DNA from: Gemmatimonadaceae bacterium
Lineage (GTDB): Bacteria; Gemmatimonadota; Gemmatimonadetes; Gemmatimonadales; Gemmatimonadaceae
Assembly (NCBI GenBank): GCA_051859245.1
Contig: JBHYGA010000001.1
Span: 960,001-1,024,000, forward strand
Direction: 5' to 3'
Length of the DNA stretch: 64,000 bases
Position 1 is the first letter of the stretch; the number at the start of each line of letters is the position of its first letter. The translations under genes were made by a program, and so were the position numbers. Below, piece by piece: positions 1 to 24,669 of this stretch. A model generated the notes under the pieces. It worked only from the letters and a program-made list of their open reading frames with translations. It did no database searches and was not told the origin of the DNA.

Positions 1-632
1 GTGCCAAGTACTCCAGCATCTTCAACTATCCCACGTTGTCGTGGGCGGACATGGGTGTGATCGGCTGGTTCGTGGATGGCGCGGCCATCGTGAATCAGAC
101 CATCCTTGCCAAAGCGTCCTACGGACCGTATGCGCGCGCCATGGTGCGCATTTGCAAGGAAGAAAACTTCCACAAGCGCCAGGGCTACGAAATCTGTGCC
201 ACGCTTGCCAACGGCACGCCCGCGCAACGCGAAATGCTGCAGGACGCGGTGAACCGTTTCTGGTGGCCCTCGCTCATGATGTTCGGTCCGAGCGATACCG
301 ATTCACCAAACTCGGCTGAGCTGCTCAAGTGGCGAGTGAAGCGCAAAACGAATGATGAGTTGCGCCAGCGTTTTGTGAACCTCACCGTGCCGCAGGCCGC
401 CGCGATCGGTGTGACGTTGCCGGATCCGGAGCTCCGATTCAACGCCGAAACGAACAACTGGGAGTTTGGTGAGATTGACTGGAGCGAGTTTTTCCAGGTG
501 ATTGGCGGCAACGGGCCGTGCAACCGGGAGCGCATTGCGGCACGCCAGAAGGCGCACGATGACGGCGCGTGGGTGCGTGCCGCGGCAACGGCGCACGCTG
601 CGAAACAGCGTCGCGATGTGCAGGCGGCGTAA
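1..632 (+). CDS. paaA: Phenylacetyl-CoA epoxidase subunit A (5' truncated by window edge)
   Basis: Frame reads [16 protein letters not shown]...[19 protein letters not shown]...[12 protein letters not shown], typical of PaaA; first gene of the paaABCD run. Confidence 0.95.
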
Positions 633-952
633 TGTCTACCAATGCGAAAGAAGCCAACGGCGTCGACACCGCTGGCCAGTGGGGCCTGTGGGAAGTGTTC
701 ACGCAAGCCGGAAAAGGTGCACCGCATGAACACGCGGGCAGTGTGCACGCAACGGATGCCGAACACGCCATGCAGAACGCACGCGATGTGTACGCGCGTC
801 GCGGCGAAGCCGTGAGTCTGTGGGTCGTGCCGGCCGACGCCATCATTGCGTCGGCACCGAGTGACGCGGGCCCGTTTTTTGACCCGGGCAACGATAAAGC
901 GTATCGCCATCCACAGTTTTACAAGGTGCCGCGCGGCGTGCGCGTCTTCTGA
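632..952 (+). CDS. paaB: Phenylacetyl-CoA epoxidase subunit B
   Basis: ATG overlaps the paaA TAA; LWEVF...HAGSVHA.DAEHAMQNARDVYARR...SLWVV...DKAYRHPQFY. Confidence 0.95.
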   Translation: MSTNAKEANGVDTAGQWGLWEVFTQAGKGAPHEHAGSVHATDAEHAMQNARDVYARRGEAVSLWVVPADAIIASAPSDAGPFFDPGNDKAYRHPQFYKVPRGVRVF

Positions 953-1791
953 TGTCGGCGCATGAAGAAGAGGGTGGCATAGCCGCCGGAAGTGCATCGG
1001 CCGTCACGATCAACGTGGCCGGAACGCGCGGGCCATCGTTCGGGCCACCCGTCGTTGAATATCTGCTGCGACTCGGTGATGATCGGCTGGTACTCGGACA
1101 TCGTTTGTCCGAATGGACCGGTCACGGCCCGATTCTCGAAGAAGACATTGCGCTGTCGAACATGGCGCTCGATCTCGTGGGCCAGGCCAACATGTTTCTC
1201 GGGCTGGCTGGTGAACTTGAAGGCAAAGGCCGTGACGCCGACGCACTCGCATTCTTTCGTGAGGGCGTGCAGTATCGCAACGCACTGATCGTTGAGTTGC
1301 CGCGTGGCGACTTTGGCTTCACCATGATGCGCCAGTTTTTGTTCGACGTGTACAGTGTGTTGTTGCTGGATGCACTGTCGTCGTGCGCACACGAGCAGCT
1401 CGCCGCCATTGCCGCCAAGTCACTCAAGGAGTGCAAGTACCATCTGCGCCACAGCAGCGAGTGGGTCGTACGACTCGGCGATGGCACAGAGGAGAGTCAC
1501 ACGCGCGTGCAGCAGTCGCTGAACGAGTTGTGGCGTTACACCGGCGAACTGTTCGTGCACGACGAAATTGATACAGCCGCTGCGGCCCTCGGTATCAATG
1601 TTGATGCGGGTGCGTTGCAGTCACGCTGGGACAGCATGGTGCAGGATGTGTTGCAGCGCGCCACGTTGTCCGCACCAAGCGGTGTGGTGATGAGCCTGGG
1701 TGGTCGGCGTGGTCGCCATACCGAGCACCTTGGTCACATGCTCTCTGTCATGCAGAGTGTGGCCCGGGCGCACCCCGGCGCAACCTGGTAG
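952..1791 (+). CDS. paaC: Phenylacetyl-CoA epoxidase subunit C
   Basis: LRLGDDRLVLGHRLSEWTGHGPILEEDIA, KSLKECKYH, GRHTEHLGHML, C-terminal PGATW. Confidence 0.95.
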   Translation: MSAHEEEGGIAAGSASAVTINVAGTRGPSFGPPVVEYLLRLGDDRLVLGHRLSEWTGHGPILEEDIALSNMALDLVGQANMFLGLAGELEGKGRDADALAFFREGVQYRNALIVELPRGDFGFTMMRQFLFDVYSVLLLDALSSCAHEQLAAIAAKSLKECKYHLRHSSEWVVRLGDGTEESHTRVQQSLNELWRYTGELFVHDEIDTAAAALGINVDAGALQSRWDSMVQDVLQRATLSAPSGVVMSLGGRRGRHTEHLGHMLSVMQSVARAHPGATW

Positions 1792-1796
1792 CGCAC

Positions 1797-2288
1797 ATGT
1801 CGCTGACGTCCGAGGCCGTCTACGAAGTGCTGCGCACGGTGATGGATCCCGAGGTGCCGGTGATCAGCGTTGTGGAGCTCGGCATCATTCGCGACGTGCA
1901 AGTGCACGGCAACACAGTGCAAGTCACGGTGACGCCCACATACTCCGGCTGTCCGGCAATGCACGAAATCGAAGCCGATATTCGGAGCGCACTGCTGAAA
2001 GCCGGAGCGGGCGACATTAACGTGATCACCACGTTCGCACCGGCCTGGACCACCGACTGGATCGGGCCGGAGGCGCGCGAAAAGTTGCGCGCTTATGGCA
2101 TTGCACCACCGGGGCGCGCCGAGCAGGGAGGGTTGATCACCCTCACCCGTCGGCGCGATCCGGTGCAGTGTCCGTTTTGTGCTTCGCGCGATACGCGATT
2201 GCAGAGCGAGTTCGGATCAACGGCCTGCAAGGCGATTCACGTGTGCAACAGCTGCCGGCAGCCGTTTGACGAGTTCAAAGCCATCTGA
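1797..2288 (+). CDS. paaD: Phenylacetyl-CoA epoxidase subunit D (SufT-like maturation protein)
   Basis: DPEVPVISVVELG, TPTYSGCPA, AWTTDW, CPFC, FGSTACKA, CxxC..PFDEFK. Confidence 0.93.
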   Translation: MSLTSEAVYEVLRTVMDPEVPVISVVELGIIRDVQVHGNTVQVTVTPTYSGCPAMHEIEADIRSALLKAGAGDINVITTFAPAWTTDWIGPEAREKLRAYGIAPPGRAEQGGLITLTRRRDPVQCPFCASRDTRLQSEFGSTACKAIHVCNSCRQPFDEFKAI

Positions 2289-2292
2289 ACCG

Positions 2293-3726
2293 TCAGACTT
2301 GCTGTGTTTTCCATGAGCCGCGTCGGAATAACACGGCGCTCACCAAAGCCAACACAGCATACGCGATCGGCACGGCAATAAAGACGCCGCGCTCCTTCAT
2401 TCCGAGTGTTTCTGCCAGCAACCACGCAAGCGGAATCTGGACCACCCAGAAACAGAAGAAGTTGATCCAGGTTGGTGTGCGGGTGTTGCCGGCACCGTTA
2501 AAAGATTGCTCGAACACCATACCCAGCGCGTACACCGGGAAGCCGAGACCAATCACGCGCAAGCCAAACTGCGCCACACGCGCCACGTCTTCGGAATCCG
2601 TAAACAAACGCACGAGCCATGGTGCGAAGATCAGAAACAACGCACCAATACTGCCGAGCACAATCACATTGAGTTTCACCGCCGTCCACACACTGCGTTC
2701 CGCGCGGTCGGGAAGCTTGGCGCCCAACGATTGCCCAACCATCGTTGCTGCCGCAGCGCCAATTCCAAACGCCGGCATGAGTGCGAACAGGATGATGCGA
2801 ATGGAAATCGTGTAGCCCGCCAACGCCGTACTGCCAAAACTTGAAACGATGCGCACGAGTGCGATCCAGCTCATTGAGCTGAGCGCTACCTGCACCGTAC
2901 CCCAGCCCGAAAGCTGGGCAATGCTCCACATCGTTTTGGGTTCGATCGCGAGATGTTGGCGGCGCACAGCGAGATGTCCTGTACCGCGCGTGAGCAACAG
3001 GAGTGCATACGCGAGACCAACACCGCGCCCGATCGTCGTCGCAATCGCGGCACCGGTGAGACCTAGTTCAGGAAATGGTCCGAGACCAAAGATGAGTGCT
3101 GGATCGAGCACACAGTTGATGCCGTTGCCCAGGATCAGCACGCGCATCGCCACCGCGGCATCGCCTGCGCCTCGGAAGACGGCGTTCACGAGAAACAGCA
3201 GAAATGCCGTGGCGCTACCGCCAAGCGTCACGCGCGCGTACATCGTGCCCTGGCTGAGTACGGCGTTGTCTGCGCCCATCAGCGTGAGCAGTTCAGGTGC
3301 CCAGATGGCGCCAACAATGCACAGCACCGTGGACAATCCCAGACCGAGTAGCAACACCTGAACAGCCGCGCGGGCCGCACTGTCGCCGTCTTTTTCGCCG
3401 ATACGACGTGCAACGGTTGCAGATGCACCGATACTCAGGCCGAACGCGATCGTGTAGATCACGATCATCAATGATTCGGTAAGGCCCACCGTCGCCACCG
3501 CAGCAGCGCCAAGTCGACCCACAAAAAACACATCGACCACGGCGAAGATGCTTTCCATCGACATCTCGATCACCATGGGCAGCGCGAGCAACAGAATCGC
3601 GCGGCCAATCGTGCCGCTGGTGTAGTCGTGGGAAGTGCCGCGTAATGCGTCGCGAACGTCGCGCCAGAAGCCCGCGTCTTCGCGGTTCGATGGATCAGGC
3701 ACGGTGGACTCGAGAGAAGTATGCAA
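2293..3726 (-). CDS. MATE-family efflux transporter
   Basis: 477 aa with about 12 hydrophobic segments; LALPMVIEM, FVGRLG, RGAGDA, LDPALIFG motifs; TTG start preceded by GAGG. Confidence 0.9.
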   Translation of the reverse strand: MHTSLESTVPDPSNREDAGFWRDVRDALRGTSHDYTSGTIGRAILLLALPMVIEMSMESIFAVVDVFFVGRLGAAAVATVGLTESLMIVIYTIAFGLSIGASATVARRIGEKDGDSAARAAVQVLLLGLGLSTVLCIVGAIWAPELLTLMGADNAVLSQGTMYARVTLGGSATAFLLFLVNAVFRGAGDAAVAMRVLILGNGINCVLDPALIFGLGPFPELGLTGAAIATTIGRGVGLAYALLLLTRGTGHLAVRRQHLAIEPKTMWSIAQLSGWGTVQVALSSMSWIALVRIVSSFGSTALAGYTISIRIILFALMPAFGIGAAAATMVGQSLGAKLPDRAERSVWTAVKLNVIVLGSIGALFLIFAPWLVRLFTDSEDVARVAQFGLRVIGLGFPVYALGMVFEQSFNGAGNTRTPTWINFFCFWVVQIPLAWLLAETLGMKERGVFIAVPIAYAVLALVSAVLFRRGSWKTQQV

Positions 3727-3749
3727 GGGAGAACCTCAAAGGATCACAA

Positions 3750-3790
3750 ATGAAAATGCCCCGCCTGTTCGTAGTCGAAGCAGGGGGGGC
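3750..3790 (-). terminator. Intrinsic terminator in the MATE leader (attenuator)
   Basis: Minus-strand stem G(C)7UGCUUCG-ACUA-CGAACAGGCGGGGC followed by AUUUUCAUUU, about 30 nt before the MATE start. Confidence 0.7.
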
Positions 3791-3826
3791 GATTTGATCC
3801 TCGAGACGCAGCCGTGTGTGGCTCGC

Positions 3827-3946
3827 CTACCAGAGGTGCCCTGCTTCGAGATGCCATGCACTGCACATCGCCGTGGCTACCGAGCGGTAGCGCACAGCCC
3901 GGTGCGACCGGGCGGCGAGGGTAGTGCTGCGAAGCAGGAAGTCCAT
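3827..3946 (-). CDS. Putative leader peptide, 39 aa (MDFLLRSTTLAARSHRAVRYRSVATAMCSAWHLEAGHLW)
   Basis: ATG-initiated ORF inside the MATE leader, overlapping the anti-antiterminator; no clear Shine-Dalgarno. Confidence 0.4.
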   Translation of the reverse strand: MDFLLRSTTLAARSHRAVRYRSVATAMCSAWHLEAGHLW

Positions 3947-3986
3947 AGAACAAATACCGGAAGTAGCGAAGAACGGTTGAGGCAGA

Positions 3987-4015
3987 ATAGTACGGCGAGC
4001 CATCGCGCAAGGCAA
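3987..4015 (-). promoter_or_regulatory. Putative sigma70 promoter of the MATE leader
   Basis: TTGCCT-17 nt-TACTAT on the minus strand. Confidence 0.55.
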
Positions 4016-4030
4016 TCGCCTATTTGTGGG

Positions 4031-4606
4031 TCACCTGACCCGGTACGAGGCGCGGTCAACGGCTTCCTGTCGACGCAGTGCCTCGCGCCAGTCAACCGTG
4101 GGGGCGACGCCCTGATCATCAAGCGACAAACTCGCCAAGGCGCGCTCAACAACGGGAGCACCGAGCTCAGCTGGTAGTGCGTAGCCGAACGCCAATTCGG
4201 CGCGTCGACAGAGTCGTTCCTCACGTGCAGAATCACGACCAGTCCGCGCTACACCCATCGCGTGTACGCGCGCGTGCACCCCTTCGTGCAAAATTGAACT
4301 CGCGACCGGCGCCGCGCTGATGTCTCGCCGCGCCAGAAATGTGAGTTCGGTAATGATCACCTGCTCATCGGGAATAAACGCACCGCGACATGCGAATCGC
4401 TCTACGCGAATGGCGCGCACATCGCGGGAGAGATGGCGCAAACGCCAAGGTTGATGCGTCTCGATGAGATCAAGGGCCTCGTGCAGTCGAGCGAGCGCAT
4501 CAGTTGTGCGGATATCGGCGCGCGTATTGAGCACCTCCACATTGATTCCGTGCGAGCTGACAAAGTGTTGCCATTCGGCCTTCTCGCTTCCGAAGTCGTC
4601 AGACAT
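4031..4606 (-). CDS. Hypothetical protein with HExxH zincin-like motif
   Basis: 191 aa; ILHEGVHARVH followed by a downstream EE; start overlaps the E1 stop. Confidence 0.6.
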   Translation of the reverse strand: MSDDFGSEKAEWQHFVSSHGINVEVLNTRADIRTTDALARLHEALDLIETHQPWRLRHLSRDVRAIRVERFACRGAFIPDEQVIITELTFLARRDISAAPVASSILHEGVHARVHAMGVARTGRDSAREERLCRRAELAFGYALPAELGAPVVERALASLSLDDQGVAPTVDWREALRRQEAVDRASYRVR

Positions 4607-24587: not shown

Positions 24588-24669
24588 TGCGCTCGCCCGG
24601 ACTCGAACCGGGACAGGTTGCCCTACAAGCTCCTAAGGCTTGCGCGTCTACCAATTTCGCCACGAGCGC
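24588..24669 (-). tRNA. tRNA-Leu (anticodon TAG), long variable arm, CCA not encoded
   Basis: GCGCTCG acceptor stem, D-arm TGGCGAAATTGGTAGACGC, anticodon arm CAAGC-CTTAGGA-GCTTG, T-arm CCCGG-TTCGAGT-CCGGG. Confidence 0.95.

Follow-up and report, generated by a model that had tools for sequence, protein, structure and literature searches.

We examined a 64,000-nucleotide window from a Gemmatimonadaceae bacterium (GenBank assembly GCA_051859245.1, contig JBHYGA010000001.1, positions 960,001 to 1,024,000 of the forward strand) and identified, on the minus strand in front of a gene for a MATE family efflux transporter, a leader of ∼255 nucleotides (nt) from its putative start to the MATE gene. 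The leader probably acts as a ribosome-dependent (leader-peptide) attenuator of transcription to which a translational lock has been added, serving a single MATE efflux gene across the Gemmatimonadaceae; we put the probability of this reading, which rests on sequence comparison and folding, at about 0.72. The MATE pump would most likely be switched on when ribosomes are held up. All parts are given in window positions in Table 1. The initial annotation of this DNA had described a promoter, a 39-codon open reading frame (ORF), three segments named A, B, and C, and a terminator, and all of these coordinates were confirmed on the minus strand between 4015 and 3727. Segments A (CCTGCTTCG), B (CGAAGCAGGG), and C (CCCTGCTTCG) are 9 to 10 nt long and mutually complementary, and C lies in the 5′ arm of the terminator, whose 3′ arm we call D. 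The proposal that these parts form an attenuator with a translated leader peptide and A:B, B:C, and C:D pairings, placed before a MATE gene, is supported by sequence comparison. We found two further features: a hairpin (P5) that abuts the leader stop codon and a pairing between segments X and Y at the MATE ribosome-binding site.

Leaders related to this one stand before the orthologous MATE gene in a total of 30 genomes or metagenome-assembled genomes (MAGs) of the Gemmatimonadaceae. The comparative counts below use 29 distinct leaders, with one duplicate (L096, identical to L082) and one spurious weak match (L089) dropped. The latter, from the window's own genome, was rejected as a leader because it had no MATE gene downstream and no terminator. 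The 30th leader, L119, was checked separately.

The short ORF that had been read in the leader proved to be conserved in the whole set. All 29 leaders have an in-frame ATG, GTG, or TTG start 13 to 45 codons upstream, with 17 distinct lengths among them, and a stop within 33 nt of the beginning of B, in the frame that reads B as E/G-A-G; the other two frames have a stop at that distance in only 1/29 and 2/29. The stop falls 1 to 8 codons behind B in every case and exactly 3 codons behind it in 25 of the 29, and the 38-codon ORF of L119, which ends in IEAGQIG before its stop, fits this pattern. Over the 1023 leader-ORF codons of the 29 leaders, the coding frame contains no stop, while the other frames contain 30 stops (in 19 sequences) and 9 stops (in 8 sequences). 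We infer that the leader ORF is translated, because its frame has been conserved through 17 lengths. To judge from these sequences, selection seems to act on the ORF being translated and on its end point rather than on the peptide.

The end of the ORF is tied closely to a hairpin. P5 begins between −3 and +2 nt from the end of the stop codon in 29/29 leaders, and it carries compensatory changes (helix 7; 4 of 5 pairs in the six-sequence test within the genus described below). The position of B exactly 3 codons before this hairpin-abutting stop is the most conserved geometry of the leader. The initial annotation had placed A in codons 3 to 6; its coordinates hold in this window, but the placement is not the geometry that has been conserved best. 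The stop itself is TAG in 27 leaders and TGA in 2; among 30 long ORFs of the window, by comparison, TGA is the stop in 18 and TAG and TAA in 6 each. In many leaders the A and G of the stop codon pair in the base of P5, and such pairing may explain the preference for TAG.

At the other end of the ORF, GGTGC or GGAG stands 4 to 9 nt before many of the leader starts, and the genome has a single occurrence of the 16S 3′-end motif. The best anti-Shine-Dalgarno pairing belongs to a start in the coding frame in 22/29 leaders, yet that start often differs from the aligned one; the criterion being noisy, we dropped the choice of start codons by best Shine-Dalgarno energy alone. The second leader codon (3941-3946 on the minus strand is the start and second codon here) encodes Asp, or once Glu, in 15/29 leaders and Lys in 4/29. 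Within the genus the ATGGA at the start of the ORF is invariant, and none of the pairings tested accounts for the second-codon bias. Many leaders also read GCACCUC(G/U)GG just behind B (3831-3838 in the window, minus strand), of which CACCUC forms the 16S 3′-end core; as a possible extra lock, this stretch could base-pair with GGUGC, the ribosome-binding site of the leader ORF itself, or with the GAGGU of the MATE gene.

We also read the leader peptides for signs of a specific stalling signal. Erm-type drug-dependent arrest leaders carry a +x+ motif. The corresponding R/K-x-R/K (macrolide/Erm-type) motif was not enriched here, being found in the coding frame of 18/29 leaders and in the other two frames of 13/29 and 24/29. 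The 29 peptides showed no conserved C-terminal arrest motif, their last three residues varying widely, and no conserved run of one codon.

The pairing between B and C was compared among relatives. In 19 sequences, 94% of the B:C cells were paired, and 2 of the 10 pairs showed compensatory changes (U-A for C-G in L028 and G-C for A-U in both L030 and L031). Each leader's own B paired with its own C better than with the C of other species in all 5000 permutations, and in the same test for A:B only 15 of 5000 permutations did as well, with kinship among the leaders inflating both results. Thus, the A/B/C pairing that had been proposed from one sequence co-varies in orthologous leaders. The terminator hairpin was present in 29/29 leaders, with energies of −18 to −34 kcal/mol. 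In transcripts that end before C, the partner of B in most relatives is either nt +5 to +18 of the leader ORF or the region of its ribosome-binding site.

The complete OFF structure was compared in six sequences of the same genus. In these, 85.7% of the cells were paired and 13 pairs had changed on both sides, compared with 36 to 47% and 1 to 5 pairs when the partners were slid along the alignment, although the test favors the OFF structure because it was derived from one of the six. The two hairpins of the branched domain enclosed by A:B were 92% and 86% paired and showed compensatory changes within the genus. In the full-length fold, X and Y pair around the terminator (duplex, −14.6 kcal/mol in this window), and only 3 of 5000 permutations gave cross-species X:Y pairs as good as the leaders' own.

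The fold of this leader is also unlikely to be due to chance. The RNA from 3985 to 3727 has a minimum free energy of −111.5 kcal/mol, compared with −86.7 ± 4.5 for shuffled sequences (z = −5.57), and 0 of 200 shuffles were as good. This fold reproduces the branched structure and free terminator that had been claimed, as it contains the A:B helix, GCACU/AGUGC, UCGCCG/CGGCGA, both inner hairpins, and the terminator. The 9-mer CCTGCTTCG had 3 matches on both strands of the 64-kb window, all inside the leader, where 0.66 were expected and 2 of 100 shuffles reached 3. Simple promoter and terminator scanners listed neither the leader promoter nor the terminator; the terminator stem (3790-3758) has internal mismatches. 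Directly 3′ of this stem on the minus strand stands ATTTTCATTTGT. The promoter, TTGCCT-17-TACTAT, is sigma-70-like, with a −35 box that matches the consensus at 4 of 6 positions, and transcription would start near 3980. A promoter of the form TTGNNN-16..18-TANNNT was found 60 to 98 nt upstream of the leader ORF in 25/29 leaders, while 0.6 was expected from shuffles.

Taken together, we propose the following mechanism. Transcription from the sigma-70-type promoter would produce the ∼255-nt leader, and its 39-codon ORF would be translated. B could then pair either with A, as an anti-antiterminator, or with C, the 5′ terminator arm, as an antiterminator. Because the stop codon follows B at a distance of exactly 3 codons and adjoins a hairpin, we take a ribosome at the end of the ORF to be the OFF signal: such a ribosome would hold B (−19 to −10 from the stop) in its mRNA channel, and with B buried, C would pair with D and transcription would end near 3750. 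In the folding analysis, masking the footprint of a stop-codon ribosome hides B by design and so lends no independent support to this step. If no ribosome were present, the A:B helix would form first and hold B, and the terminator would again form. If instead a ribosome were halted on the start codon or within the first ∼8 codons, it would cover A (nt +9 to +17), leaving B free to capture C before D is transcribed, so that the polymerase would read into the MATE gene. The choice between the helices would be kinetic, since at equilibrium the terminator is the more stable fold. Speculatively, P5 may make RNA polymerase pause or delay the ribosome over B.

A second layer may operate in this clade. 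X would pair with Y over the Shine-Dalgarno sequence of the MATE gene, so that leaky read-through transcripts would stay untranslated, and in the B:C form X would be enclosed in the B:C loop, freeing Y and the MATE ribosome-binding site. The role of X:Y as a translational lock is thus predicted from its sequence and position. For the inducing signal, we would give about even odds, by analogy, to translation slowed by ribosome-targeting compounds, which the pump may export.

It is important to note that several observations weigh against this reading. The covariation of B:C is modest, with 4 of the 10 pairs invariant and the sequences related, and the position of A varies, lying in the early codons in some relatives and in the ribosome-binding region or 5′ untranslated region in others. 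The X:Y pairing is clear (−12 kcal/mol or below) in only ∼11 of the 29 leaders. The Shine-Dalgarno match of the leader ORF is weak (−3.1 kcal/mol here and −0.5 to −2.5 in L012, L102, L111, and L114). The leader peptide is poorly conserved except where it overlaps A and B, the closest pair differing by 4 replacements and 1 silent change, and neither a stalling site nor a drug class can be named from such peptides. Moreover, in equilibrium folds with A masked and the full terminator present, the terminator was the best fold in 28/29 leaders; the switch must therefore be kinetic. In transcripts cut before D and free of ribosomes, B:C was already the best fold in 19/29, this window included. The OFF role of A:B would therefore rest on a kinetic trap, in which A:B forms first and exchanges slowly, and according to these folds the ribosome-free state may be ON.

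Four other explanations for the leader were considered. Riboswitches that control MATE genes are known from other bacteria, and the branched A:B domain is strongly structured, with hairpins that show compensatory changes within the genus; it might thus be an aptamer for a small molecule, perhaps a substrate of the pump, with the ORF incidental. The initial annotation had allowed for ligand binding to this domain and had recognized no known riboswitch class. Its second statement agrees with our Rfam searches: at the gathering score, the sole match in the whole window was a tRNA (24588-24669), with no family at the leader; at E ≤ 10 the leader strand again gave nothing, and just two matches, both on the opposite strand and both noise, lay nearby; and a search of 12 related loci gave no match. 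The ligand-binding suggestion was not supported. The branched domain is not conserved beyond the near clade, and it is absent or replaced in the leaders with 13, 18, 19, and 22 codons (L017, L019, L035, and L104), which have no room for it and which retain the start, the frame, B, the stop, the hairpin behind the stop, and the terminator. In the alignment of relatives, the conserved leader nucleotides are all explained by B:C, X:Y, start, and stop. An aptamer is very unlikely because the domain is missing in short leaders that keep these other parts. A trans-acting protein or small RNA that stabilizes B:C or A:B, with the ORF as a by-product of GC-rich sequence, seems more improbable still. 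Open frames are common at 62% GC, and X, conserved and single-stranded, might bind such a factor, but just one frame is open in all 29 leaders, with a start and a fixed stop position, and no linked regulator candidate was found, the upstream 191-amino-acid (191-aa) ORF having no family match and being absent from other genera. A trans-acting factor is not needed to explain the leader.

The two remaining explanations keep the ribosome as the sensor and change what it senses. A trp/his/phe-type attenuator that senses a single amino acid through its charged tRNA would have an identical architecture, Arg codons are frequent in the leader peptides, and a Phe-rich leader precedes a prephenate dehydratase gene in another family of the phylum. 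The 29 peptides nevertheless lack a conserved single-codon run, R-x-R is no commoner in the coding frame (18/29) than in the others (13 and 24), and the regulated gene encodes an exporter, not a biosynthetic enzyme; we consider this version quite unlikely. In the other version, the signal would be the dwell time of the ribosome on the hairpin-embedded UAG, set by release-factor-1 activity or by a nascent-chain effect, and not stalling at A. The fixed distance of 3 codons between B and the stop in 25/29 leaders and the stop-abutting hairpin in all 29 both suit this idea, as does the use of TAG in 27/29 though TGA dominates the long ORFs of the window (18/30). Against it, the last three residues show no evident arrest peptide, pairing at the base of P5 may be what fixes TAG, and a longer dwell would lead to more termination, which refines the OFF state and supplies no inducing signal. 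Dwell on the stop codon as the primary signal is therefore unlikely, and we retain ribosome-dependent attenuation relieved by a ribosome held early in the ORF. A broader form of this reading is tentative: a start, an ORF of any length, B placed 3 codons before a hairpin-embedded UAG, and a terminator could make up a general sensor of whether the ribosome arrived in time, switching on a MATE exporter when any of many ribosome-targeting natural products is present, possibly with timing specific to release factor 1.

The distribution of the leader was examined with two covariance models, R1 for the whole leader and R2 for its conserved 3′ core. R1 matched directly upstream of the MATE gene in 18 of 27 Gemmatimonad loci; in the 9 without a match, the MATE gene stands directly behind another gene. 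On 51 loci from other phyla, R1 gave 0 matches at E < 0.3. The closest relatives of the MATE gene come from loci in Gemmatimonas, Gemmatimonadaceae, or Gemmatimonadales MAGs, and a DNA search of 14 further genomes from the genus found the leader in 6. R2 found one real copy in the window's own genome, the next match (E of 0.004) not being a leader, and full-length matches in 12 of 151 sampled family genomes. In a 151-genome sample of the phylum, true R2 matches were confined to the Gemmatimonadaceae (5/31). The same MATE orthologue lies downstream of all 11 newly inspected family matches and of L119. Judging by these matches, the predicted attenuator is conserved across the Gemmatimonadaceae and is dedicated to one MATE gene.

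Some matches were not counted. One match from the phylum sample, L122, has no MATE orthologue behind it, and in 9 genomes of the family R2 matched only over model positions 62 to ∼110, on what is no more than a terminator hairpin. In a metagenome scan with a 16-mer from the 5′ arm of the terminator, 0 of 80 loci with DNA fit R2 at E ≤ 1e−5 and none was leader-like among the matches listed; the 16-mer stood there in unrelated sequence, a result that is uninformative on abundance. A weak R2 match (E of 3e−5) in another family of the same order, L120, fell on a different leader (L120:1595-1675, minus strand). It has a 26-codon ORF, MSNRNPFGFLFTTSGAAHEPSGAGKP, with 3 Phe in 5 codons, followed by a terminator, and the gene downstream (L120:613-1513, minus strand) is a prephenate dehydratase gene (PDT, 5e−53, plus ACT). 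From its sequence, this looks like a classical pheA-type attenuator, and leader-peptide attenuation would thus be used elsewhere in the phylum.

The MATE protein scored 274.9 bits against TIGR00797, above the cutoff, and matched no specific NCBIfam equivalog at its cutoff. Its gene appears to be monocistronic because its neighbors are convergent phenylacetate catabolism genes and a separate upstream E1-like gene. The 191-aa ORF just upstream of the promoter matched nothing in Pfam or NCBIfam; in other genera, the end of the fused E1 dehydrogenase-like gene lies upstream of the leader or of the MATE gene in its place. Three other ORFs over the leader, at 3635-4177 on the plus strand and at 3744-4010 and 3877-4236 on the minus strand, had no Pfam match. 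The first of these, a 180-aa antisense ORF, covers the whole leader and is probably an artifact of GC-rich sequence.

Table 1. Positions of the leader parts, the MATE gene, and neighboring genes in the 64,000-nt window
Feature	Positions	Strand	Description
−35 box TTGCCT	4015-4010	−	Read from sequence
−10 box TACTAT	3992-3987	−	17-nt spacer from TTGCCT
Leader ORF, 39 codons	3946-3827	−	MDFLLRSTTLAARSHRAVRYRSVATAMCSAWHLEAGHLW (MDFLLR...HLW); ATG 3946-3944, stop TAG 3829-3827
Segment A	3938-3930	−	CCTGCTTCG; CCUGCUUCG; codons 3-6 of leader ORF; candidate anti-antiterminator strand
Branched interior of A:B domain	3929-3849	−	GCACU/AGUGC, UCGCCG/CGGCGA, hairpins 3912-3898 and 3891-3876
Segment B	3848-3839	−	CGAAGCAGGG; leader ORF codons ..E-A-G; partner is A or C
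Hairpin P5	3828-3804	−	Begins inside or right behind leader stop codon
Segment X	3805-3795	−	CUCGAGGAUCA; CCUCGCGGAUC in relatives; complements MATE ribosome-binding region
Terminator hairpin	3790-3758	−	−21.4 kcal/mol; 3′ arm D is 3771-3758
Segment C	3785-3776	−	CCCTGCTTCG; within 5′ arm of terminator stem
U-rich tract	3757-3746	−	AUUUUCAUUUGU; 3′ of terminator stem; comparable T-rich run in alignment of relatives
Segment Y	3746-3734	−	UGAUCCUUUGAGG; contains MATE Shine-Dalgarno GAGG 3737-3734
MATE family efflux transporter gene, 477 aa	3726-2293	−	TTG start; Pfam MatE 1.2e−63
191-aa ORF	4606-4031	−	5′ of promoter; stop 15 nt before −35 box
786-aa fused E1 dehydrogenase/transketolase-like gene	6959-4599	−	Upstream neighbor
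Phenylacetate catabolism genes (PaaA/PaaC family, PaaD-like)	952-2288	+	Convergent with MATE gene

The Gemmatimonadota are abundant in soil and freshwater, and their gene regulation is almost uncharacterized. The MATE leader provides a specific case, open to experiment, in which antibiotic-style ribosome sensing would be coupled to a MATE exporter, and it could act as a translation-stress sensor in the Gemmatimonadaceae. The natural series of ORFs from 13 to 45 codons, with a fixed spacing between B and the stop, is a ready-made deletion set for defining the minimal needs of an attenuator. The leader leaves the current understanding of attenuation unchanged and would not surprise a specialist; the switch belongs to a well-known kind, represented here by a new, previously undescribed sequence family. 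In a literature search through listings and abstracts, we met neither a MATE pump under leader-peptide attenuation nor any account of riboregulation in Gemmatimonas. If the general-sensor idea were true, the leader would be the first of the leader-peptide type shown to control a MATE pump, as well as the first characterized riboregulator of the phylum.

The closest parallels are found among attenuators of other bacteria. In the trpL leader of Escherichia coli, four segments pair as 1:2 and 3:4 or as 2:3, segment 1 is part of the leader ORF, and segment 2 is covered once a ribosome reaches the stop codon. The MATE leader shares the four-segment logic, with A in the leader ORF and a stop-codon ribosome predicted to lie over B. 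It differs in having no runs of regulatory codons and an exporter as its target, in an ORF that covers segments 1 and 2 plus the branched insert, and in the extra hairpin that abuts the stop.

Two systems in Bacillus subtilis resemble it in the signal that we propose. At bmrB, a small translated ORF with alternative stem-loops and an intrinsic terminator controls the multidrug ABC transporter BmrCD (bmrCD), and induction is brought about by protein-synthesis inhibitors and requires translation of the leader (PMC4191407), with slowed translation as the inducing signal (PMC4191407; PMC5417439). A small ORF, predicted to be translated in the MATE leader, competing stem-loops, a terminator, and an efflux-pump target are common to both leaders. 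The leader ORF of bmrB, however, contains the terminator, which in the MATE leader is 3′ of the ORF; the pump family and phylum are different, and there is no homology.

The vmlR leader is similar in its logic. Stalling in its upstream ORF prevents an anti-antiterminator, and translation attenuation is added to this (PMC9226507). In the same account, stalling on the leader ORF lets an antiterminator form that blocks the intrinsic terminator, as proposed for the MATE leader; a second, translational layer is present; and the vmlR gene protects against ribosome-targeting drugs (PMC9226507). There is no sequence or Rfam relationship between the two leaders, and VmlR is an ABCF factor, while the gene regulated here encodes a MATE exporter. 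The vmlR system is also described as having NusG-dependent pausing and a (p)ppGpp input. In comparison with the vmlR arrangement, the ORF of the MATE leader spans the whole anti-antiterminator domain and ends 3 codons past the antiterminator strand.

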